64,000 nt of DNA from positions 98,116,726 to 98,180,725 of the forward strand of contig NC_058133.1 in assembly GCF_016433145.1 (NCBI RefSeq), read 5' to 3'. The notes under the pieces were generated by a model that was not told the origin of the DNA, searched no databases, and saw only the letters and a program-made list of their open reading frames with translations. The translations under genes and the position numbers were made by a program. The stretch's first letter is position 1, and each line of letters starts with the position of its first letter. Below, piece by piece: positions 3,400 through 57,003 of the stretch. Source of the DNA: Gracilinanus agilis (Eukaryota).

Positions 3400-3525
3400 G
3401 TAAGCGACCTCTCCTTCCATGTCTCTCTCTTACTGTGGCAGAATCTCTTTCAGCTTCTCTCTTACCTCATTCTTCGAATGGATGATGAGCCAGTTGTTGA
3501 GTGGGGTGAACAGGAAGACTACTAA
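3400..3525 (+). CDS. CRB1: CRB1 exon 11 read-through extension (11b): 41-aa alternative C-terminus of the CRB1-B / isoform-2 type
   Basis: The frame stays open past the donor: [41 protein letters not shown], then TAA at 3523-3525. This closely matches the recalled human alternative tail [41 protein letters not shown]. Confidence 0.92.
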
Positions 3526-14524: not shown

Positions 14525-17500
14525 AAATTTATATTTTACCATTGAATCAAACATTTGACAAGCATTTACTCCATGCCTATTGTGTGCCAGGCACTGTGCT
14601 AGGAACTCTGGATATAAATCATCCATACCATATCACAATCTATTCATAACAGAGTAGATAAGTCTGAGGAGTTTAAGTGATTTGTAAGAGATAAAATTTG
14701 AACCCAGATCATCCCATTCTAAATCCAGCAGTCCATCCACTATCTCAGGCTGCCTCAATCTATTTATTACAGAGCTTTGTCTCATTGATAAGACAATCTG
14801 GGATTTTTCTAACCTTGAAAGTTAACATCAAGGACAATGATGTCTCTCTCTTGGCATGTGCCTTGGGGGGCTTGTTAGCAAAAGGATGCTGGGCTGGACA
14901 GACCTAAGTTCCTATGGTCTTTGCCTGTAGCAGAATGACATAGAATGATGAATTCTCTTCAGCTTGCATCGAATGCACTGTCACTCATTACCTTGTCCAG
15001 ACTCCTCCCAATTTGCTTTTAGGATGTATGCTATAAGTCAGAATTAAGTTTTGATGCTTGTAAAGAAAAAAAGAGAAAATTGTTCTAAAATGTTACTGCT
15101 GATACAAAGCTCATCCACTGAAAATAGTCATCGGTCAAGTCAGATTCCATTGTCATTTTTCATGTCAAACACTGCATCATAGACTTCATAAATTTAATGC
15201 CTCAGATTTGTAATTTCATTTCAAAAAATATTTACTGTCATTTCCTGTGCAAGATGATTATTTTTATACAATTGGCTCATAAGTTCAAAAGATCATAGAC
15301 TTAGAGCTGGAAGGAATATAGAGATCAAACTTAAAAAACTTAGGGACCCAGGGAGGTTGTATGATTGGCCAAAATGACACAGATAGTAACAGATGGCAAA
15401 ACCAGAATTTGAATTCAGGTCTTTTGACTTCAAATCCAGCACTGAGACACTTGAACTGACTGAAATAATTATAGTTTTATTGGTTTTGTGTAGAATGCAT
15501 CTCTCCTTCAATAGCTTTTATTAACAAAACATTGGACTGAACAATTGGTGATTTTTGGATTATCAGGTAAGGTGAGAGCTAGGTGAGGACGTATTATGTA
15601 GAAGATACCATACTACTATGCCTTGGGGATTCAAAGACATTATGTACAATTACTAGCCTCAAAGAGTTTACATTCACACTTTCCTTATAGTGATTATCCC
15701 TTCCGAGAAGAGACTTTTCAATCATTAGAGTATATATTACAACCTCTCTGGGGATATTATAAGAAATAAATAAATGATGACTGGTTGAAATTACAAGTTT
15801 TTTTGGTAATTCTTTGTGATAATACTTTGTGATTATGATCTAGGAAAATATATCCTGATCAACTTGACACATTTTTATTTGCCACAAAATTTAGTTTTAA
15901 TTTCTCAGACCATCTCAGAATTCAATACATCTACTAAAAGAATTTAACTAAAAAAAAAAAACAAATAAATCTGAATAGAATTTCTTTAATGGTCACATTC
16001 ATGACAAATATGGCTTAGCTCTAAGTATACAGTAGACATTACCATTGAATATATTTTATATTTGCTCTCAGAAAATAGAGTTATATTCTGCCCTAAACAA
16101 CTCTAGACACTGATAGGGTGAAAACGATAATGGGTAGAACAGAGATTTCTAGTTTTATACAAATTTTAGCTGAATTTATTATTGTATGAGTTCTCATTCT
16201 TATTTATATCTCTTTGGGAATCCCATCTGTATGAGTGTATTGATTTACAGGCATTAGAAAGCAGATCATGGAACACCCTGTTTGCCCATTCTTGGGAGGG
16301 TAATAGGAATCAGCCAATAGGCATTTATTAAGCACCTACTATATACCAGGTACTGTTCTAAGTGCTAAGAATACTAAGAAAGGAAGGAAACAGTCCCTGC
16401 TTTCAAAGATCTTAGAGTCTAATGAAAAGAACTTGAAAACTCTGTAAAAGATATATACTGGATAAATGAGATTTAAGTAATAGAGGGAAGACACTAGCAG
16501 TAAGAAATGTTGAAATGAGTCCATTTTGTCTTTAAATCATTCAATTCAACCAACATTCTGTAAGCACATATTATATGGGAGCCACTAGGTATTGGTTATT
16601 CAGTCATATTAATAGACAGTTCCTGTTCCCAAGGCGCTTACATTCTAGTTACAACTTCAATACTCCATAATATGTATCCAGGCACCATATCTGGTACGGT
16701 TCAAAATATGTGCCAAATTTTTCTATTTTTCCATCAAAAATATTTTCATGAAAAGACTCTAATGTTGAGCAATGAATCAAATGCATGTTTTGTTTTTTAC
16801 CAATTGTTTACCATTGTTTTACCTATTTGAATATATAGCAAAATTCCAAAAATGGGATGGGCTGCTTCAAAAGGTATGTAATACATGTATGATAGGAGAC
16901 CTCGAAGCAGATGCTGGACGGTCACTTGTCAGATACATTAGTGTAAGAATTCCTTTCAAGTATATGTTGTATTAGAGGGTCACCAGGGCCCTTTCATACT
17001 CTAAAATTCTCTGATTCTCTGTTAGCAGCAAGTTGTGCTTTTTTTAATAATAATATTTGCTGTTACTGAAAATTTTTTCCCAAACAGAATATACTAGAGG
17101 CTAATATATTAGAGGCTACTCACCACCTCTAAGACATTAGGAAAAACTAATAATATATGATTTATTTTTAAAAAAATACACAACTGGCCAATTCTCTATG
17201 AACTTATTTAATTATCTAGAAACAGCAACTATGATGGTTTTATCACATTCATGTATATAAATCATTTTTCCCACTGCTCCACAATTTCTTAGAATGTTCT
17301 AAATGAGTTCAGTTACTCAATAAGAGTAAATTAAAAGCAAATCTAAAATGAAAAGGAAAGACCATGAAGTATTTGAATATTTTGGGTAGATGGAAACATT
17401 TTATATTCTACATTCCAACCAAGTAAACAGCCTCATACTAAGCCTGTGGCCTAAAATTCTACAGGGGTTTTTAGCCCAAGATAAAAGAAGTTCTCAAGAA

Positions 17501-37379: not shown

Positions 37380-39456
37380 ATATATTTTCCCTTTTTGAAC
37401 CAATTTAGATGTGTGAGATTTACACATTGCCCACCCTCCCCAGACTACTTTCCTTTTTACTGTACAAGCTTTTTGCACACCTCTTTTATGTGAGATAATT
37501 CTTGCCATTCTTTTTCTCTTTCCCCCAGGTCATCCTTCTATCTCACCTATCCATTTTTCTATCATCTTAACATGAATGATTCACCCAAATATTTTATGTA
37601 GAATGTGTTTTCCATGTAGAATTCTTCTGCATTAATAATGATAAAAATCTTAGAAGATACAAGTATCATCTTCCCATATAGAAAAGGTACACTGTTAACC
37701 TTATTGAGTCTCTTATGATTTCTCTTTAATGTTTATATTTTTGCATTTCTCATGAGTCTTGTGTATGAAAGTCAAATTTTCTGTTCATCTCTGGTCTTTT
37801 CACCAGGAATTTTTTTCCATTAAGAATTCTTAAAAGTTCTCTTTTTCATTAAATATCTATTTTTTCCCTTGAAGAATTATATTCAGCCTTGCTGGTTAGG
37901 CTGCTCTTGATTGTAATCCCAGTTCTTCAGCTTTCACAAATATTTCCCAAACCCTTTGTTTCTTTACTACAGTTGCTACTAAATCTCATTTGATATTGGC
38001 TATGGCACTGTAGCATTTTAATGGTGTTTTTCCCTTGCTGCTTGACATACTTTCTCTTTGACCTGAAAACTCTGGAATTTGGCTATAGTATTCCTGAGAA
38101 TTTTCCTTTAAAGATCTCGTTCAGGTAGTGAACATTGGATTCTTCCAATTTTTATTTTACCCTTTGGTTCTAGGATATTTCAGCTATTTTCCTTGATAAA
38201 TTCTTGATTTGTGATTTCTAGGCTCTTCCTTTGATCATAGCTTTTAAATAATGCAATAATTCTTAAGTTATTTCTCATTGATGTATTTGCCAAGTCGGTT
38301 GTTTTTCCAATTTCCAATTTCCAAACCAAATTCCATGATTTCTATTTTTCATTCATTTGACTTTCACTGTTTCTTGATATTGCATGGGGTAATTAGCTTC
38401 CAGTTGCCCAATTCTAATTTAAAATAAATCATTTTATTCTGTGTGCTTTTGATCTTCTTTTATCATTTGGTCAATTCTGTTTTTTAAGGTATTTGTTTCA
38501 GTGTTTTTTTTAATATGTATCTTTTACCAAGCTGTTAATTGTATTAAAAAAACCCTTCCCTTTCATCTTAGAATCAACATTAAATATTGGTTCTGAGGGA
38601 GACAAGTAGTAAGGGGTAGGCAATTGGGGTAAACTGAGATGTCTAGGCTCACAAGCTAGGAAGTGTCTGAATGCAGATTTGAACCTAGGACCTCCTATCT
38701 CTAGGTCTGGCTCTCTATCCACTGAGCTACCTAGCTGCCACTTCTAATTGACGTTTCATAATTTTCTTACTTTGTTTTCATTTTTGCCTAATATTTCTGT
38801 TTGTTTTCTGATTTGATTTTGAAAATCTTTTTCTTTAGCTTTTCCAGGAATTCTTATTGGAATTGTATCCAGTTTACATGTTTTTTCTTGGAGACTCTGC
38901 TTCAGGCTTCCTTGTCTTCCTCTGGTTGTGTGTCTTGATCTTCCCTGTCAGAAAGAAGAAAACTTTGGGTCTCAGAAGAACATACAGAATATAGCATAAA
39001 TTTTTGCAGTCAGATTCTTTTTTGTAGTTTGTTCATTTTTCCACCCTATTTCTTGATTTGGAACTTTATAAGAAAATTGGACTCTGTTCCTGGTGTGGTG
39101 GGGAAGAGCTCTGTCTCAAGCTTCAGAATTTTTTGTACTGCTCTTTTTAGAGTGAGTTCTGTGGTTTTGGAAGTTTTCAGTGTTTCCAAGGTTATATGAT
39201 CTGGGGAGAGTTGTGGTTACTGCTCTCTTGATCTAGACTCTGGTACTTACCCAGGAAAGCCTGCATACTCCCCCCTCATCACAGACCTCTCTTTTTTACC
39301 TTATTTTTTGTTTTGGGAGAGAAAAATGTCTTACTCTGACCTTTTATTGGCTCTGTCACTCCAGAATTCACTTTGAGGCTTTGTTTTAAGCTTGTTTGAA
39401 GGAGCATTTTGGGAGGTCTCAAGTACTTCTCTACTCTGCCCTCTTGGCTTCACTCC
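37380..39456 (-). mobile_element. Old L1 fragment retaining the 5' end and ORF1, antisense to CRB1
   Basis: The minus strand near 38130-38210 resembles L1 ORF1 (EIIKEN..ILEP.GKIKI.RI). Near 39430-39456 it reads ggagtgaagccaagagggcagagtagag, like the L1 5' terminus (GGAGCCAAGATGGCGGAGTAG). Confidence 0.75.
38544..38741 (-). mobile_element. SINE1_Mdo-like SINE nested inside the L1
   Basis: aaacccttccctttcatcttagaatc...gaacctaggacctcc...ccactgagctacctagctgcc. L1 sequence continues on both sides. Confidence 0.85.
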
Positions 39457-40449
39457 ACTACTTGTGTTTTATTGTATTTATTTGTTTTGTTAAATATTTC
39501 CCAATTACATATGAATCTGGTCAATTACATTTGAATCTTGTTCAAACCCCACTCAGTAGTGTTGTGTGTTGTGCCATGTGAGCACTCTGTTCATAGGGAA
39601 CCTTCCACCATTTAAATAGCTTTGAAGTCGTTACTGGCCAACCCTACTTTTCTTACTCTTGGTATCCTTCTATCTTTTCATTTATACTTTATTCACTTTC
39701 TCATACTCTATGGCCCCAGTAACACTGAGCAAATCACTATTACCCACATAACACATTCTACCTCCTGATTACAATTTCCCTGTATCTTCTATGTCTGGAA
39801 TTCTTTTTCTCCTCATTCTCACCCTTCTCAATACAGCTAAAATTCCCCCTTCTGTAAGAAGTCTTTTTTAGTTCCTCTCAATGCTAATACTTCCCACCTC
39901 TCCCATTTCTCTGGTAATAATTTTGTTTACACATAGTTGTTTGCATGCTGCTTCTCCCATTAGACTGGAAGATCCTTGAAAGCAGGGACTGTTTTTGTCT
40001 TTCTTTGTATCTCCTGAGCTTAGTTAGCACAGTGATGGAACATAGTAGAACCTGAATAAATACTTGTTGGTTTTCCTGGTACGGACAACCAGAGGAAAGG
40101 GGGATACAAATTAGAATATGCAAAAGAAACAAAAAATACAAAAAAATGTAATGGCTCCTAAAGAAGTTGCCACATGTTGAAGAGAATGAATTCCATAAAT
40201 CATAAGCTTTGCCTCCCACTTTAGAAAGTTAGTGTTATAGATTTCAAAAATCTTGTCGGTATTGTGGGTGATGCCACATTCTTTAAGTTTATAGTAAACA
40301 CCTGGTATAAATTCAAGATGTTGAACAGGAGCATCCCTAGGACCATTAGGGTTACATGACTGTACCAGTAGTGAATTTTTTATTTCAGGTCAGGGCCATC
40401 TGTATCTCTTACATGTAACCTCTCCCAAGATATGAGTTGCCCTGAAGGC

Positions 40450-40829
40450 CATGTTCTCTGGCCAAAAACCTCTTGCTCTGTGGGAATCCCATCAGTGAGA
40501 TTATACAAAATATTTGTCCCTTTAAAGTTGACTTCTGAAAGGTTTCCCTCCTTAGGCTATAAACAAGGACTCTCACCTTCAACCTGGGAATCAGGATTGT
40601 CACCAATACAGTTAATAAATCCCATTTCTTCCAGGCAAATTCAGGCATTATAGCTAGGTAGAGACACTTTAATCTCTTCTGTGCCATTAGAAAGAAAGGC
40701 ACCACCTAGTGATCCCCAAAATCCTCCAGGGAAAGAAGTTGTACAGACCATCCTGGGGAATAAGAGACCTGTCAATTAAGTTGGATCTGAATGTCACCTG
40801 TTTTCTCAAGGCATTTGCAGCCCTTCCCC

Positions 40830-40902
<73 letters not shown>

Positions 40903-42000
40903 CTAAAAGGGTCAAACAGAACTACACTTGAAAGCAGTTATGCAGTAATTCCTTATCAGGTAAGTCTTACTGGAGGCTTCCAGAAAGGTATCCATTGTTG
41001 AGGACTTAACTTCTGAAAGATGAATCTATGATAGTAAGATACATGATGATGCAGCTGTTGTTTTGAAAGCATTTAATGATGCCACCTCTCTGAGGATGAT
41101 ATAGGAAGAGGAAAACCCAGCCAACATGGTGGTAGCATGTCTAATCTTGTCCCTTCTTTGTGGTTAAATAGGTTCATTGATCACAAGTAATAATTCAGGG
41201 TGGGGCATTAGGAAGAACTAAATTTTCTATATTAGTTTTCTATGGGGACTCCTGCAATGGCAGACTTAAATGATGTAGTAATGTCATATATCAAATAATA
41301 TCAACTATTGGAAAGGCAAACTTATTGCCTTTGATGTGAAAGGGAGCCAATATAATTAATTTGACATTTGGAGACAGGTCAGGAAAAAACACTGGCCATA
41401 TCGGTTTTTCAGGAGGGAACTTTAACATGAGTAACCTTTGGGTAGAAATAGCTGTCTCATCCTTAATTAGAGGGGTCATAAAGTCCTATGTTCACTACAA
41501 TATTATATCACAGCCCTTTTGTCCAAATTGTATTGGACCTCAATTTCTGCTGGGCTTCTGATGCCATATGATGGCTTTTATGGGTCCTGAATGCTGGAGG
41601 CATCAGAAAAAAAGTCCTCCATTCATCCTGATCCTAAAGAGGAAAGCCTTTGTTTCATCTTATTCTTTCCAAATGCCAGGTCATGCCCACCACCCAGGAA
41701 TTAGTATAGATAATCTTAACTGTCCCATCTCTCAAGGCTTTTACAAACATTAGTCATGTGGCCTCATTCCATTGGGGGGGGGCTTTACAGGACTTCTCTA
41801 CCCGAGGGTATCCCTATTACTGAATTAATGGCCATAGAATTGCAGTTGCACATGCTTTTCACATTGTTGTTGGAATCAGGCAAATTATTCCTCAGGAGCA
41901 TTACCTCATTTTGCTCTCCTCATTTGGAGAGGAACAGTATGAAGTAAAACCAAGTTTTAGCCAAACTATACTTCTTACTGTCCACTATTCATACCCTAAC
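40450..42000 (-). mobile_element. Decayed LTR-retroelement/ERV pol interior (RNase H, integrase, dUTPase-like), class III/ERV-L-like order
   Basis: Minus-strand motifs: QWNEAT*...IIYTNSWVVG (41774-41685, RNase H), CQINYIGSLS (41366-41337, integrase WQIDYIGPLP), P*IITCDQ*TYLTTK...YHPQRGGII (41200-41075) and IKVSLPSY / GDNPDSQVE / VRVLVYSLRRETFQ (~40680-40520, dUTPase-like). Stops and frameshifts throughout. Confidence 0.7.
40833..40899 (+). repeat. Compound (CT)n(AT)n microsatellite inside the ERV remnant
   Basis: Read directly from the sequence. Confidence 0.97.
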
Positions 42001-43745
42001 CTTATATCCTTTCTTCATGCTGTACTTTAGTCCTAGAGGGCATTGCTTCCATTGGTCTGTAGAATTTTTATGCATCCTTTAAAGTTCAAATCCCAGAATG
42101 ACAGATCAGCCAACTAGTCAAACCTGTAACTGAAAGAGAATCTCCTTTACAGAGTCCCCAACAAATGAATTGAGGCTGGAAAGAATAGTACTAGATGAAA
42201 AATTTGAACATAATCCAGGAAACAGCAGGGAGCCATTGTAAGATTGAACAGAGAAACAACACATTGAAATCCATGTATAAAGTATATTAGTCTAGTGTGA
42301 AAGATAAGTTAGAAGGAAGATAAAATGCAGACAAGATTTATTCAGATTTTATTAAGGTATTAGGCTGTCTAGATAGTAATGAGAGACTAGATTAGGGTGA
42401 TGCAAATGAAAATAGGATAATTGGAGGAAAGAAAAATAGATGAGGCTATTGAAGAAATAAAATCAAAAATCAACATTTATATTCTTTCCCTCAATACCTA
42501 TTCATTCTTTTGACTTCACTCATTCTGCCATTGGTTTCACCATTATCCAATGTCCCATATTTAAAATGTCTGTGTTATCTTTTACTTTGTTTTTTCTCAT
42601 TTCATCAATTATTAAGTTATAGGATCAAGAAATCATAAATTGAGATCTGGAAAGGCCCTCAGAGGTCACCTAATTTCATCCCTTCTTTCTGAGAACAGCA
42701 GCCAAGTTTGAGGTACCAGATAGTCAACTAGATGGAAACATCCTTTAGTCCACTGGAGACAGGAGTCTCAAGAGACATCAAATCTGAAGACATAGATTTG
42801 CATCATCCCAATAGAGATGATGGTTTAACTCTAGTTGTGAATGAGATTGACAAGGAAAAGAATATAGAGAAGAGCAAAAGATGGAAAACAAAACACTGGA
42901 GAACAATTATCTTAATGGTGAGGAAGAGGGAGAGAAGTATATGAAGGAGTCTCAGAAAGAATAGTTAGAGGTGAGAGGGCGAATTCATTTCCATTCAACT
43001 GACATTATTACAAACATGTACTAAGCACTAAGGCTACAAATTAAAAAAAACAATCATTGATCAAAGAGCTTAATACTATTGGGAAGGATTTCTTCTTATT
43101 AATCTATTTGGTAAAAAGCATTGGGCTTAATTTTTCCCTCTTATTCTACCATGACCCTTCCCAAGATAATTGTTATGCCTTTATAACACTCCTCTCTTTT
43201 TCCTTCTCTTCCTCATTTTTTTCTAACTATAAAATGGGCAGTGTATCTATGGTTGAAAATTGACACTGCAGAAACAGTAACTTTGGAAAGAAAAATCTGG
43301 CACTCATTCAGTATTACTATGGAAACAGCTATTCTCAGCAATACACTGGTATGATATAGTTCAAGGATTTAGGTCTGTGTGGGAGGTTTTTGCCATCCAT
43401 TAAATCAATGATCCACTCTTTATAACAAAAGTCTCTAGACAGTCATTCATAAAAGCCTTTCTTCTTTGGCTTGCATAAGAAATTTTTGTATTAATTTCAT
43501 GAGCATAGTATAGTGGATGAAGGACCCAACTGAGTGATTCAGTCAGGAAGACCTGGGTTCAAATCTACTCTCTGAAGGGGACTGACTTCATGACCCCAGG
43601 AAATCATTCAACCTCTCTGTGCCTCACAATTTTCTAAGACTATAAATCAAAGACAAAGTACTGATTTATATTGTTAGAGGAAGTTCTTTACTAGAAACTC
43701 CCAAAACAGATGAAATCAAAGACTGGAGTGGGGGGAAAGTACAGA

Positions 43746-44049
43746 TTTTCTTTGTTTCTTTTATTTTAAGATGGGGTCTCCATATCTTTCCCACACTGCA
43801 AGTGCAGGGGTTTCTCAATGGCCCGACTCTATTATTGATCAACTTAGGAGATTTTACCTGCTCCATTTCCATCCTGGGTCTAATTACTCCTTTTTTGGGC
43901 AGTCTTGTGGCTTCCTGCTCCTGGTGGTTCACCAGACTGAAGCCAGGCAATGTGCAAACCTCATTGGCTTAGCTCATTGTGTCTCAGAATTCCTGAGCCA
44001 GCCTTTGGTAGGGAGGGATAGAGTAAAAGTGTACACCACCATGCTTCCC
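43746..44049 (-). pseudogene. 7SL (SRP) RNA-derived retrocopy (P7SL_MD-like) with A-rich tail
   Basis: The reverse complement aligns along the length of 7SL, e.g. CCCAGGATGGAAATGGAGCAGGTAAAATCTCC vs 7SL CCCAGGTCGGAAACGGAGCAGGTCAAAACTCC. It ends GAGACCCCATCTT plus an A-rich tail. Many CpG decays. Confidence 0.9.
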
Positions 44050-45680
44050 ATTTTGTTTCTCAGAAAACAAGCAGTCTTTAGCTGAAAACATCACTAGTTT
44101 CATTAATCATTTTCCTAATTCTGATGCATAAATGAGTTTGCTCTGTCCATCACAGCCCCTAAGGAACATAGCCTGAAAAGCTCCTAACATATTCAGGCTG
44201 CCATGGGTCTTGTGATGAGCAGGCAGATTCAGAAAGGAAAACTCTCCACCCTGAGATCCCTCCACTGTCGAGGTTTCAAATGCAAGACACCCAGCTCTGC
44301 TGGAGACAAAGAGCAGGGAACATTCTGCAGGTGATGCTACTGCTGTTGCCGAGGTAATAATATCTAGACGCTAGAAACCAGAGGAGTGGCGAAGGAAGAA
44401 GGGTAGAGCTAGGCCTCCAGGCTCCCCTTTTTATCCCCCTTTTTGAATCTCCTGGCTTGTAATGAAGCCCTTAATGTTTCCATATCCTTTCAATTCCAAT
44501 TGTGTAATCACTTCCCAATAAGCCACACAAAACTTGAATTTTTTCAATCTAGGGCAATTTTCTATGTGTTTATGGTTTTCCCATTTTTCCAAGTGCTGTA
44601 TTCAACACCAAATATTATGACAGGCAGCTCTAGATGCCTAGGATAGAAATGATCTCATCCCTCCTCTTCCTTTTAGACAAGTCAGTTCATTTTATGTTTT
44701 CCAAATTAGATTAACTGTTCAACAATCAATTAGTGAAGAAACAGTTGATCCTGATCGGACCAGACTGAAGAACCTTCTGGCATCTCCACATCAGTTTCCT
44801 GAAAGTGCCAGTGGGGTGAACTCCCCATGCTGAACTGGGACACTGCTCAGAATGTCAATGGTCCAAGGATATGGTCGGTGACCCTTGAGAGTTCTAAAAT
44901 GCAGCAAGGCAGGGAGGATGGACCAGGGAAAGTCAATGCTCTATAAAACTAAGGAAAAAAATCTCAACAGTTTCCTTCAGAATGAGCTCCTCATGAAAAC
45001 TTCTTAGAGGGGAGAGAAAGCAAAAGTGCACAGCTCTCTCATAAATGGGCGGGATAGAAATGAGTTATTTTCACAAATTTTAGCTCTTAGAAGAGTTGTT
45101 ACTTCTCTTTGGTCAGTAAAGGCCACTTTCCATCCAAGAATAATTACTAGAGTGAGCCAATGCTTGGGAAAATAATCTAATAACTACTGGTTTTATAACT
45201 GGTTTTACTATGCAAAGCCTGAGTGTAAAATGATCAGGTTAGAAGATTATTAATATATAAAACATGTATTAAATAAGTTGATGGAGAGGCGGGATGCCCA
45301 GCATGGAAACTCAGCAACTCTTCTGTAATTTATAGTTTTAACTGGTGGCCCAGGGCCAGGAGAGATTGAGTTGCCCATGATTGCCCAGCTAGTATATGTC
45401 AGAGGCAAGATTTGAACACCGGATGTTTCTGAGTCTAAAATCCCACTATCCACTATTTTAAGTTGCTTCTCAAATAATACCACAGTAATATAAAAATTTC
45501 TGAAGTGTTGTGGTCAATTACTTCTCAACTTTAAAAAAAATTGCCACATGCCATTTGCAATTAATTTGTGACTTTATTTTCTGAAAGACTTTGCTTAAAA
45601 AGTCATATATCAAAAGTGGGAACTTCTTTACAAAGTTTCATCTTTATTTTGGTTCTAGATCTGTGATTTCACCAGCATCC

Positions 45681-45934
45681 TGTGGATTTTTAAAATTAAT
45701 ATGCAAAATACTCCTAGTATTATGTTTAATAAGATTTTTTAAATTAACTTGAAAAAAAGGGAAACTAAAAGACTAAAGTCTAGAGGGAGCTCACCCAAAC
45801 CACTCACATGGATGAGAAAGAGAGGGAGGAGAAACCAAAACTATATACAAACAACATAACAACGTAAACATAAATGAAAGGGAAAAGGAATTGTGGGGGA
45901 TGGAGTCCAAGGGTTCAAGATTCTAATTAATACA
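45681..45934 (-). mobile_element. Small solo LTR, copy 1, inserted into an older SINE
   Basis: TGT...ACA termini and homology to 46956-47186 and 52281-52519. The host SINE is split (gatctgtgatttcacc | ctggtatgggaaa...). Confidence 0.65.
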
Positions 45935-46955
45935 ATTCCTGGTATGGGAAATGTGCACTGATGCAGATCTCCAACTTAGAGAATTGCCCTTGTCAGTGAA
46001 GGGTTAAGGGACATGCCTAAGGTCATACAGCCAGTATTTGTCAGAAGTTGGACTCAAACCCTAATTTATCTCCACTCTGAAGCTGTGTCTCAAATTACCA
46101 CAGAGGTCTTGTTTCAGGCCCTTGTTCTTCTCTATAGAAAACAGCTATAGAACAGGAGACCCATTTGGAAGATTCTCTTCTCCTTTTGTCTTTCAGGCTC
46201 CATTTTTCTGGAAGCCATTCTATAGCTGTATGTCCTAAGAGCAACTGAAGAATAGAATAGCAAGAACGACTCTGTAGCTACTGGAATTATAAGCAAGTGA
46301 TCCTCGAGTCAGAATGTCAGAACCACCATCATTCAGCTTTGCTCAAGGCTTAACAATGCCCTCCTTGAGAGAGTTAAGTGACCTGCATCATTAGAAATTA
46401 GACCTGAGGTTTGGTATTACACACAAATTGCTATTATAGAGAGGCGACTGCTACCACATAGAGAACTCTAAAGGAAATTTTGAAATCATCATTAGCAACT
46501 GATCATCCCAAAGGTTAATGGTATGTGCCACGTGGTTAATAGATGGCCATCTCTTGTGACCTAGAATTATTCATAACATAAGTCTGCCTTGACCCTATCC
46601 AGTGGGGTTTTCTTACTTGATGCACCACACAGTGATAGCATAAGCTGCACCAATAAGCACAATGCTAAGGGGGAAATGACAAAAAGATTCTGGTGTTTTC
46701 CTGATCCCATCACGACGAGGACCAGTGCAGATAACCCTGGCAAAACAACCCGCTTGATTACAAATTCTCACCAAGATTTCTAAAAGCAGAAATTTTGAAA
46801 CTAGCTCCAAACCAATTGTTGAGTTTTCAGTACAAGTTTTTACATCTTAGAAATGAGCAAACACTACAAATCCAGGCCTGATTTGTTGTTTTGTTCACTG
46901 TCTAGTTGTTACAAAGTGGGGGGAGAAAATGCTAGTAATGAAGGTGAAATGGAAT

Positions 46956-47186
46956 TGTAAGATTTAAAATTAATATGCAATATCTCCAAATATTATATTT
47001 AACAAAAGTTATTAATAATAACTTGAAGAAAAAGAAAATAAAAAAGCTAGAGTAAAGAGAGTACTAGCCCACAGAGAGGGCAGGCTTTCCACAAACTTAT
47101 AAACAACACGTGAAAACGCAAACGTGGGGACGCAGGGAGAGGAATTCTGGGAGATGAAGTCCAAGGGTACAAGATTTCTACTTACA
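46956..47186 (-). mobile_element. Small solo LTR, copy 2
   Basis: TGTAAG...CTTACA inverted termini. Shares ttaaaattaatatgcaa and gtccaaggg..caagatt blocks with copy 1. Confidence 0.7.
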
Positions 47187-51218: not shown

Positions 51219-51402
51219 GGGGGCAGCTGGGTAGCTCAGTGGAGTGAGAGTCAGGCCTAGAGACAGGAGGTCCTAGATTCAAACCCAGCCTCAGCCACTT
51301 CCCGGCTGTGTGACCCTGGGCAAGTCACTTGACCCCCATTGCCCACCCTTACCAATCTTCCACCTATGAGACAATACACCGAAGTACAAGGGTAAAAAAA
51401 AA
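51219..51402 (+). mobile_element. Young SINE1_Mdo-type tRNA-derived SINE with TSD
   Basis: Full head GGGGGCAGCTGGGTAGCTCAGTGG, B-box-like GATTCAAACC, A tail. TSD AAAAAAAAACCTGA at 51205-51218 and 51394-51407. Confidence 0.92.
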
Positions 51403-52280
51403 CCTGAACTTAAAAAGAATAACTAAGTTAGTGGGAAAATCTGGATTAGCAAGAATATTTAACCATAAGAGGAAGGCATCAAATTGCATGCTTCATCCTC
51501 TGGCAACACTCTTCTCCAATTTGTTTCCATGCTAATATTTTCTGTGATGGTGGCTTCCCCAGCAACCAAGGAATTCAAGGTATTTATGGGTTAAAATGCC
51601 TCGATATCTCTCATTTCCCTGTCCAGTCCCTGCCACAGGATCTTGTATAACAATATACTGATGTCAACTGCCACCCCCAACTTGTATATGGAATAGATAA
51701 TGGGATAAATGAAATAGATAAAAAGAAAAGTCAATGATATAAGTAACTAGTTCCCTCTAGGCAACTTCCAGGGATCCAAAATGTATGGAAGACTAACTTT
51801 CATGCAACTTGTCTTGGATAGCACGAAATAAAACTTACTTTGACAATTTAAACCCTCTCAACCTACCTGTCCAGCCTTAAGATCATACTGCTATTTAAGC
51901 ACCTTTACACTGTCTCTTCTCCTGACAAACTGAATCCACATTTTCATTCTTCCCTCTCATCTCTGTGCTTTTGCTGGTACTATCCCACATCCCTAGAACA
52001 AGTTCCCCATCTCACAATCTCCATTTGTTGAAGGGAGAAGAGAAAAAGCATTTACATAGTGCCTGTTATGTGCCAGACACTTTATAAATATTTTTTCATT
52101 TAATCCTCAAAGCGACCCTAGGAGATAGGTTCTATTATTATCCATATTTGGTAGTTGAAGAAACAGAGACAAACAGAAGCTAAGTGACTTGTCCAGGATT
52201 ACCCAGCTAGTAAGTGTCTAAGGTCATATTTGATCTTGGGTCTTCCTGAATCTAGACCCCAATTCTATTTACTATACCAC

Positions 52281-52541: not shown

Positions 52542-55500
52542 AGAATTCTAAAAATAAATTTCTATTTATGCACCACCTAGCTGCCCCAAAGTGAAGCCCC
52601 TTACTTGCTCTAAGTCTCTTCCCACATGAAGGCTTCCCTGATATGACAGGAACAATATTCCAACCTTATATGTCTTCCCCCAAACCTTCAACTAAATTTG
52701 GCTATTTTTTCCTTAAAATGTATCAAAACTATATTCCTATCTTTGAGTCTTGATCAGCTCAGGACACTAAAGGAACTTAATGGTCTATCAAGGCTCTCCA
52801 GACCTTCTCTGACGACTGGAGGTAGGGTGAGGAATATTGGGAAATAATAAGAGTTGCCAGGCACACTGAGGGAGAAGCAGAAGGCTGTGAGCACCAGTCA
52901 ATCAAAATCTTGATCATCATGTGCCCTTAGACATCCCATCCTATGAATTCAAACTCAAAAGCCATGGAAAAAGCTACACCCTCTACCTTCTCACTAAATA
53001 TGGCCAGAATTACTTCCAGCCCAAAGCCCTGCAGCCATCCAGAGAAGAAAAAAATTGTAAAAAGGGGGCTCACTTTCTTCATCATTCCTAGCTACAGCTT
53101 GCTAACCACTTGCCATCAAACAAGAGCCCCAAGAATGGCTACTAACCAGATCATGGATCCTGCCTCCAGTCCATCCCTCACTGCCATTATTCAGGGAAGC
53201 AACCCCTGTGGCAAAGAGGCCAAACATTCCACCAAATGCCCAATAGATGCTACTTCTAGAGTGGGCAAAGAGCCTACCTGAAGCCACAAGGCACCCTGAG
53301 AGAGACACAGGAGGCAGCATACAGCAGGCAAGCCAAACCATCACCACCTTGATGATCATCTCCCCTCATACCCTACTGAAAATAACCCAGGACTCTGCTC
53401 TAAGCGCCTTGCAAATATCAAGGCTTCTTTCCCAATGCCCAAAGCCCTTGTCCTGAGAGTCGATCCTTATGGCCATTCAGACCTGCCATGGCTCCTGTGG
53501 GTGCTATAGCCACATTTGATAAAGTCCCAAGAACAAAGTTCCCAACACTAAAGCCCTCTGCACTAATTCATTTAACATCAGAGATTGATTGGATTTTTAT
53601 CACTGGAAAGAAGCATTTGCATCTGCTTCACCACTGCTTCCCAAGGACCCAGGAACCTTTCCATTGGACTTGTTGCTAAAGCCTCTGTACATCTCCCCCA
53701 GTTAGGCTGTGAGTTCCTGGAGAGCAGGGGCTGCCGTGTTTTTAATTTCTACCCTCAGCACCTAACACTGTGCTTTGCACATTGTTAGTGCTCAATAAAT
53801 GCTTTTTTCATTCATCCATTCAACAACTGGCACACTGGACACCCTTTTCTCTCCATTCTTAGCTCAGATTAAAATCTCTCCATCCTCTCCAGTCTCATAG
53901 CAGGTTTATCTATCATCTCTTTGCTTTGTATTTATCTCAGTTTCCTTTGTGTGTGGTAGGTAGAGGGGCTACTCTCCACAGGAGATTGAAAATTATATGA
54001 GAGGAAGGTCTGTGTTGTATTTACATTTGTGCCTTGCCCACTTGGTACAATACCTTGCACATATCAAGTGCTTGGTAAAGGTCCATTGAATCCACCTGGC
54101 AGTTGGGTGCCGCCAGTTTGATGACTAATGCAACGTAGAAGAGCTGAGTAGACCACCTGGATCATGTATAATCTAGGACATGGGTTTCCCTCTCCAAAGC
54201 CCCAACTGATTTTTGCTGAGACAAAGCTACTGGAAACTGGCAGCCGGTGCCATGTTCCTTTTCACGTTATGATGATTCCGAAGTACTTAAGAGAACCTGT
54301 TTCCTCTCTACATCATTCACCTCAGAGGAGCAAAGGGCAATAGAAATCAATTAAGCCTAGACAGCCCTGCAGATAGCAGTAACAATGAAGGAAAGAATCA
54401 CACTCGTTCTGATCCCGATTCTGATTTGCAGACTCTGGAGGAACAAAATGGAGACAGACGTCCCACTTGCTGATATGTGCTGCAACACAGCAAAAAACAG
54501 GATTCGTAAAAAGCCGCATCTGGTACACATTTGCCAGGAGTAACATGAGGTCTAGCTCCAATAAGGCCTGTGCAGGTCTTATGTCTGCTACAGTCACAGC
54601 ACAGGCTTGGAAAGGTGAGGGGAGCTTAATGACCATAAATGAAATCACCTGTCAAGTCTGCCCCAACTCTCAACTCCTGAATTTGCCACTGAGCGGCTGG
54701 CCTTCTTAATTACCAGAAGGGAGAAAAAGAAAATTCCTGCTTTACAACACAGGCAAGCCAATGATAAATGTTAACATTCTTTGGTCATTCCTATTTACCT
54801 TCTAACTATAGAAAATAAATAATATCTCTAGCATCCCAGGCCTGTGGAAAGAACACTAGACATAAGTTAGAAGACCTAGGTTTGAGTAGTAGCCCCGAAA
54901 TTTAGTCATTGTATGGCCTTAGCAAGTCAGGTGCCCATGAGCCTAAATAAAATAAAATGGAGCTAATAATCAAATAATAATAATCAAATGAAATGGAGCT
55001 AATAAATAAAATAAAATGGAGATAATACTAACATGACCTACTTTAGTGGGTATTTGTGAGGGCACCAGTTAGAGTGTGAAAAATACTTAAAATCCTTTGT
55101 TGCTTTATAAATGTTGTTTTATGATGCTTATCTCTAATAAAGGACTGTCTTCTTTCCTGGCTTCCCCAAACTCTGCCAAGATTTCAGTCCAAAGGATTGT
55201 GGAAAGTATTTCAAGATGTAAAAGCCCTCTGAATTGTAGGCACCTTATGAAAGTATAAAACAACAACATCCCAGAAGACTCAAGTGTTCCTAATCACAGC
55301 CAAACAAAGAAAAAAAAATTATAGGGTTTGGAATTGGAAGTCTAACCTTCTCTCTACACATAGGAGAAAACATGGAGGTTAAGTGACTTACCAAAAGTCC
55401 TACAAACAATAAATAACAGAGCCAGGATTTGGCCCTTGGTTTGGTGAACCCAACTCTAGCATTCTCTATCTGTGTAAAGAAGATCTTAATGATAGGGCTA

Positions 55501-56794: not shown

Positions 56795-57003
56795 GGGGGC
56801 AGCTGGGTAGCTCAGTGGAGTGAGAGTCAGGCCTAGAGACAGGAGGTCCTAGGTTCAAACCCGGCCTCAGCCACTTCCCAGCTGTGTGACCCTGGGTAAG
56901 TCACTTGACCCCCATTGCCCACCCTTACCAATCTTCCACCTATGAGACAATACACCGAAGTACAAGGGTTAAAAAAAAAACAAAAAAAAAAACAAAAAAA
57001 AAA
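56795..57003 (+). mobile_element. Young SINE1_Mdo-type SINE with (A)n/C tail and 16-bp TSD
   Basis: About 5 differences from 51219-51402 over about 175 bp. TSD CAAAGGTAGTTTTTTT at 56779-56794 and 57004-57019. Confidence 0.93.

Follow-up and report, generated by a model that had tools for sequence, protein, structure and literature searches.

Remains of an ERV-L-like class III retroviral pol with a likely dUTPase relic, antisense in an intron of a crumbs-family gene

Introduction

ERV-L is described in the accessible part of PMC3758187 as the oldest dated mammalian lineage of endogenous retroviruses (ERVs), and it is the source of Fv1 and of embryo-stage promoters. According to the available sections of PMC5753468, a dUTPase located downstream of the integrase separates ERVL from ERVS, which lacks a dUTPase. 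In the accessible part of Chong et al. 2014 (PMC4299795), the same arrangement is reported for ERV3 elements of frogs, turtles, crocodilians and mammals, its origin may lie before the tetrapods, and CrocERV41 is placed close to mammalian ERV3. The accessible text of PMC8278194 gives the dUTPase of the frog element XtERV-S a position as in ERV-L.

With regard to marsupials, ERV-L and MaLR are called absent in opossums by one review (PMC11359688), the oldest ERV-L orthologue is stated to predate the placental radiation and not to have been found in marsupial genomes (PMC3758187), and 0% ERVL is given among the long reverse transcriptase (RT) ORFs of the opossum and the devil (PMC4408412), each in the available passages of the source. 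Similarly accessible passages list ERVL.1 for the koala (bioRxiv 10.1101/599852), and an ERVL class of 2,082 elements, or 0.02% of the genome, for the numbat (PMC9650251). In keyword searches of mostly openly accessible papers, no description of a marsupial ERV-L with a dUTPase was found; the available parts of PMC9004415, PMC11334065, PMC13709493, PMC7786948, PMC2664473, PMC12287698 and PMC4531489 added nothing decisive.

Here, the remains of a retroviral pol in a window of 64,000 nucleotides (the whole stretch of DNA that was analysed) are described. An earlier note, made from the letters of this DNA, had claimed the interior of a fossil ERV-L-like provirus in a marsupial intron, with RNase H, integrase and dUTPase in this order.

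Results

The retroviral remains (Table 1) are antisense to a crumbs-family gene, which we take to be a paralogue of CRB1 type, and lie inside its last intron. The intronic location claimed in the earlier note was thus borne out: the intron is bounded by an EGF-repeat exon and by a terminal exon with the Crumbs tail (4wsi_X; E-value, 1.7e-8). The frame of the EGF exon reads on into the intron at 3400-3525 (plus strand) up to a stop, ending with VEWGEQEDY; this readthrough, apparently intact here, presumably represents the alternative secreted C-terminus of CRB1.

Several repeats were observed in the surroundings. Young and older copies of a tRNA-like SINE are found at 51219-51422, 56795-56998 and 38540-38745, the first two being 93% alike. 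We take all three to be opossum-type, and it is because of this resemblance that the host is regarded as a marsupial. The minus strand at ~38760-39460 resembles the 5' end and the ORF1 start of an L1 element, and presumably is one. The 3' side of the retroviral element is flanked by a high-copy dispersed repeat (39901-40082), which is ~70% alike to 16300-16471 and has a depth in the thousands in all three of the public runs considered below (X1, X2 and X3). At 52927-53283, 3' of the gene, each strand is open over long distances; this is probably what is left of an old LINE or of a pseudogene, and Pfam gave no match. An Rfam scan of the window gave 0 matches.

Table 1. Host intron and retroviral remains, in positions of the window
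Feature	Positions	Strand	Description
Host intron	3400-48418	plus	45-kb GT..AG last intron of a crumbs-family gene (CRB1-like); flanking exons in frame
RNase H, decayed middle part, class III	41673-41774	minus	QWNE.. corresponds to QWAEL and IYTNSW to FTDSW in L009 (residues 656-699)
Integrase N-terminal zinc-finger region, probable remains	41380-41480	minus	Blocks at 41479 and 41404, close to where the diagonal is expected
Integrase core, decayed	41072-41378	minus	L009 residues about 833-935
Microsatellite	40833-40899		(TA)18 and (CT)16, within the element between integrase core and dUTPase
Likely dUTPase relic, placental ERV-L type	40574-40801	minus	Three collinear blocks with frame breaks between them; motif-3 catalytic core not preserved

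Standard searches with single frames of the window gave nothing of use. No family was found by Pfam in three full frames and 18 sub-fragments (X at stops; several sub-fragments in an unintended frame), PDB sequence searches (one query in an unintended frame) returned nothing relevant, and 0/33 candidates were scored in a word-index protein search with the integrase piece. A phmmer search against 1.84 billion proteins produced 183 matches that were uninformative, the query being swamped by its microsatellite. For this reason, natural reference sequences were collected. Scanning metagenome contigs for motifs yielded 13 loci, among them L009, a mouse-type ERV-L pol with Pfam RVT, RNase_H, rve and dUTPase in that order, and L006, a bird-type class III pol without dUTPase ("mouse-type" and "bird-type" are our own labels). 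A search with L009 gave 26 proteins, among them Pols with rve and dUTPase named as those of seahorse, killifish, caecilian and frogs. In a second search, 120 of 184 shorter proteins were listed, and 116 of these are at least 50% identical to L009 and are referred to as placental-type; the named ones belong to primates and an anteater, one has a fungal label, and most are unnamed. From viral contigs came 10 loci of gamma type, 5 of beta/alpha type and 16 of foamy type. The group referred to as non-mammalian includes unnamed records and, in several tests, the monkey-labelled P0169.

Some of the references are of interest in their own right. In P0154 (seahorse) and P0155 (killifish), a class III Pol is almost intact and has a dUTPase after the integrase, which is beyond the tetrapod range given in the accessible part of PMC4299795. 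P0169 (Plecturocebus label, "Golgin A2, partial") has a class III integrase and a dUTPase of fish/amphibian type, and groups with the unnamed P0166, not with HERV-L; it is either a member of a second mammalian dUTPase-bearing ERV3 branch or a mislabel.

For the RNase H and integrase regions, a purpose-written frameshift-aware aligner was run with class III Pol profiles in a search space of 4 x 64 kb, that is, both strands of the window, forward and reversed. The RNase H piece, which has one in-frame stop, is the best place for the class III RNase H profile in this space (50.8; next, 44.8), and its score was reached by 0/150 shuffles and 0/240 control tiles at three settings. With the class III profile, the integrase core scored 71.4 vs at most 46.3 elsewhere in the same space, and none of the 150 shuffles or 246 tiles reached that value at three settings. 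When compared with L009 as DNA, the core shows 212/343 identities, and 0/114 tiles were as good. It has several stops, frame breaks occur between ~41340 and 41190, and its catalytic acidic triad is not intact; the blocks matching L009 residues 889 to 935 share one diagonal. The zinc-finger region is collinear, yet not significant alone, its score being reached by 69 of the 150 shuffles. The order and spacing of the RNase H and integrase pieces agree with the ERV-L Pol of L009. No significant result was obtained with the Pol tail profile and 3' DNA. Six-frame translation recovered all of the peptides quoted in the earlier note on the minus strand, each in its reported place, and the identification of RNase H and integrase made there holds, both domains beating every shuffle and tile. 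The fossil remains of a retroviral RNase H and integrase are therefore genuine.

The search for a dUTPase depended on the profile. The score of the first profile (14 sequences, mostly non-mammalian) was reached by 115/150 shuffles under the strict setting and by 11/150 under the lenient one. Significance came only with the second profile tried, the placental-type one (z 4.1; 2/280 tiles; 0/500 DNA shuffles at both settings), and column-shuffled versions of this profile matched its score in 1/100 and 0/100 cases at two settings. The three blocks start at 40786, 40709 and 40642 and correspond to L009 residues 1038-1049, 1068-1084 and 1091-1113; the third, of 23 residues (EFAWKKWDLLTVLVTILIPRLKV), aligns without gaps. 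With block limits that were set after the alignment had been viewed, the three have ranks of 5, 16 and 1 out of about 255,800 places for the placental ERV-L profile (255,728 for the 23-residue block), and the middle one ranks 2 with the non-mammalian profile. The spacings between them are 77 and 67 nt vs the expected 90 and 69. Among 26 single dUTPases tested, the top five all belong to placental-type ERV-L (z 3.0-4.8), while z is at most 2.0 for the 13 other class III, 4 beta and 1 Gypsy dUTPases; 8/8 alignments of placental-type dUTPases end at 40571-40574. Mean identities of the outer two blocks are 4.7/12 and 7.3/23 to placental ERV-L vs 2.1 and 3.4 to other class III. In a tree of the blocks, which were partly chosen by the placental profile and were compared with references that include no reptile (turtle or crocodilian) dUTPase-bearing ERV3, a branch with 99.9/98 support puts the window with the placental sequences.

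The peptide GDNPDSQVE, quoted in the earlier note, results when the third block is read in another frame. The register used there is also the one that the non-mammalian profile follows on its best path (z 2.8; 2/280 tiles; with tail, 1/200), and it needs three frame breaks and several gaps. As fixed blocks, it scores 3.0, 8.6, -12.4 and 11.4 vs 22.3, 15.9 and 42.4 for the register of the placental profile. The latter implies that ~110 nt were lost after the integrase core, whereas the former fits the spacing without loss. GDNPDSQVE as dUTPase motif 3 is disfavoured by the lower block scores and by the breaks and gaps needed. A dUTPase relic is very likely present downstream of the integrase, and it should probably be read in the placental-type register. 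Thus, the relic proposed in the earlier note finds support in the placental profile, and with it the order RNase H - integrase - dUTPase, while the register is probably a different one.

The class of the element was assessed over RNase H and integrase together. In pairwise comparisons, with a null of only 12 tiles and with six near-duplicates and P0172 left out, z was at least 6 for 14/22 class III, 1/16 foamy, 0/10 gamma, 0/5 beta/alpha and 0/2 Gypsy references. The top raw score belongs to a foamy virus. In the free tree of integrases, the window sits on a very long branch, with support of 90/77 for a position among the non-foamy class III sequences and of 65/80 for a sister relation to placental ERV-L. 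The tree constrained to unite the window with bird-type class III lies 6.9 log units above the free tree, and none of the alternative placements is rejected in AU tests confined to the integrase (p values: foamy, 0.47; gamma, 0.40; beta, 0.40; Gypsy, 0.45). The class is therefore assigned from similarity and the order of the domains and not from phylogeny. On these grounds, the Pol of the fossil appears closest to class III, with a far better fit than to gamma, beta or Gypsy. The class III, ERV-L-like identity proposed earlier is supported accordingly, and its separation from class I/II and Gypsy elements agrees with the result that 0/17 gamma, beta and Gypsy references attained z of at least 6. 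The earlier note had suggested frameshift-aware alignment, Pfam and an integrase phylogeny as checks: the alignment to class III Pol was significant, Pfam was empty for single-frame read-throughs, and the phylogeny gave the sister relation to placental ERV-L in the free tree only.

About 1.2 kb of pol is recognisable, ~30% identical in protein. Upstream of RNase H, profiles of protease, RT, tether and the RNase H N-terminus gave nothing above background, and no RT remnant was detected at 41400-47000. Neither gag nor an intact frame nor an LTR pair was found, and no direct repeat >46 nt flanks the element. The single env reference used (P0171) scored at background level downstream, where decay could hide an env. 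The observed/expected ratio of CpG is 0.02 in the element and 0.12 in the window. No open frame covers any domain, so no co-option is suggested. Directly downstream of the dUTPase relic, a 73-codon stop-free stretch was noticed (40141-40359, minus strand), with no match in Pfam or PDB and no usable match in the Atlas. Inside it, 40323-40183 weakly resembles one Gypsy RT (P0173) in the half that follows YXDD, with a score of 53; this reading was dropped, the score being within reversed-sequence maxima of up to 59.

The stretch is contained in one public run (X1; 0.94 of words), which may be close to the source and is therefore not independent support. In X1, the element is covered by two contigs split at the microsatellite, with a depth of about 25-34 save for the skipped microsatellite bin, hence there are few close paralogues at 80% identity and the copy is near single-copy. 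No RNA runs containing the stretch were listed. In X2 and X3, which come from organism B of the same study, one contig each matches the flank in order at 42078-43720 (X2: to 44235), the displayed pieces of the X2 flank differing by ~10-19%. Joints at the depth of the flank contig (29.0 and 29.6) connect 41199 to 41873 and 41931 to 42078. From these joints and equal depths in partial tables, without a full alignment and with no evidential weight given to uncovered bins, we infer that organism B, a distant one, seems to share this insertion, with a portion of the integrase core in it. An insertion common to organism B would thus be older than a split of tens of millions of years.

Discussion

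The locus is best explained as what remains of a class III ERV of the ERV-L kind, now dead: the 3' half of its pol, with RNase H, integrase and, likely, dUTPase. Its entry into the germ line probably took place in an early marsupial, tens of millions of years ago, and the copy has since decayed antisense in the last intron of a CRB1-like gene. Retroviral dUTPases serve to exclude uracil from viral cDNA, and the dUTPase of this virus, as in ERV-L, may once have done the same. A class III retrovirus, or an env-less retrotransposing form of it, would have been integrated into the germ line by its own integrase. The 5' part may have been lost through deletion or have decayed past recognition, and the later decay, with deletions and growth of the microsatellite, was probably neutral. 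The antisense orientation may have helped the survival of the copy, which most likely is inert, with no present function.

Other origins must be weighed against this. It is unlikely that the provirus, though class III, belonged outside the placental ERV-L branch and carried a dUTPase of the broader fish/amphibian/reptile ERV3 type, read in the register of the earlier note. The non-mammalian profile is above background, with its best path along that register, the distance to the integrase requires no deletion, and the integrase identities are alike for both class III groups (12.6 vs 12.0 of 46); however, the breaks and gaps needed, the far lower block scores, and the failure of each of the 13 non-mammalian-type dUTPases to exceed z 2.0 argue for the placental-type register. 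A class III or foamy-like pol fragment without any dUTPase (ERV-S, bird-type ERV3 or ERV4), with a downstream match due to chance, would be in line with the top z of bird-type L006 over RNase H-integrase (13.6), with the foamy and bird-type placements that survive the AU test and with the non-significant first dUTPase profile. What makes it improbable is that the 23-residue ungapped block is the best of all the places scored, lies where a dUTPase is expected, and is accompanied by two further blocks in order.

The empty Pfam results and the Gypsy RT score would be compatible with a class I/II ERV, with a Gypsy element or with motifs that arose by chance in the intron. However, that score does not leave the reversed-sequence range, pairwise z is at most 3.0, 1.0 and 1.1 for gamma, beta and Gypsy, respectively, and RNase H and integrase exceed every null while standing in the correct order; such an origin is highly improbable.

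Since the fossil remains most resemble ERV-L, it is likely that this family, described from placentals, also reached marsupials, and its placental-type branch may have an old, shared marsupial insertion. An old marsupial insertion would widen the host range of ERV-L and add a calibration point. The more specific scenario, in which the placental-type branch (HERV-L/MuERV-L) infected an early marsupial and left an uncatalogued locus shared across distant marsupials, is doubtful; if true, that branch and its derived dUTPase would predate the marsupial radiation and possibly date to the therian ancestor. The earlier note had also claimed a bearing on the age of the ERV-L/dUTPase lineage. This claim shrinks and is largely not supported, because ERV3 elements with a post-integrase dUTPase are already known in print (the range in the accessible part of PMC4299795) and were found here in fish and amphibians; the locus does not change when ERV3 acquired its dUTPase, a combination already documented in print across tetrapods and, by the present search, in fish. 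A narrower point survives, namely that the dUTPase of this locus appears closer to the placental ERV-L type than to the fish and amphibian type.

Among the described systems, foamy viruses (L029-L044) have a similar integrase motif (IDYIGPL, SDQG, YHPQ), but lack a dUTPase according to Table 2 in the accessible part of PMC8278194, and their overall z is lower than that of class III. The ERVL class label is already in use for marsupial repeats of the koala and of the numbat (PMC9650251). As described, koala Ko.ERVL.1 (bioRxiv 10.1101/599852) is young, full-length and polymorphic, in contrast to the fossil, an old copy that is near single-copy. ERV3 elements of other vertebrates with a post-integrase dUTPase (CrocERV41, PMC4299795; XtERV-S, PMC8278194; P0154 and P0155 of seahorse and killifish, P0159 of a caecilian, P0161 and P0162 of frogs) have the same domain order and an about equally similar integrase, but the non-mammalian ERV3 dUTPases tested match the fossil more weakly, and many of these elements carry env (PMC4299795, accessible part), which was not detected here. 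Compared with placental ERV-L of MuERV-L/HERV-L type (L009 and P0177-P0296, e.g., Tamandua P0178 and macaque P0181), the locus is reduced to ~1.2 kb of pol on a very long branch, with no detected gag, RT or LTR, and its host is apparently a marsupial; the two nevertheless share the RNase H - integrase - dUTPase order and the same RNase H and integrase motifs.
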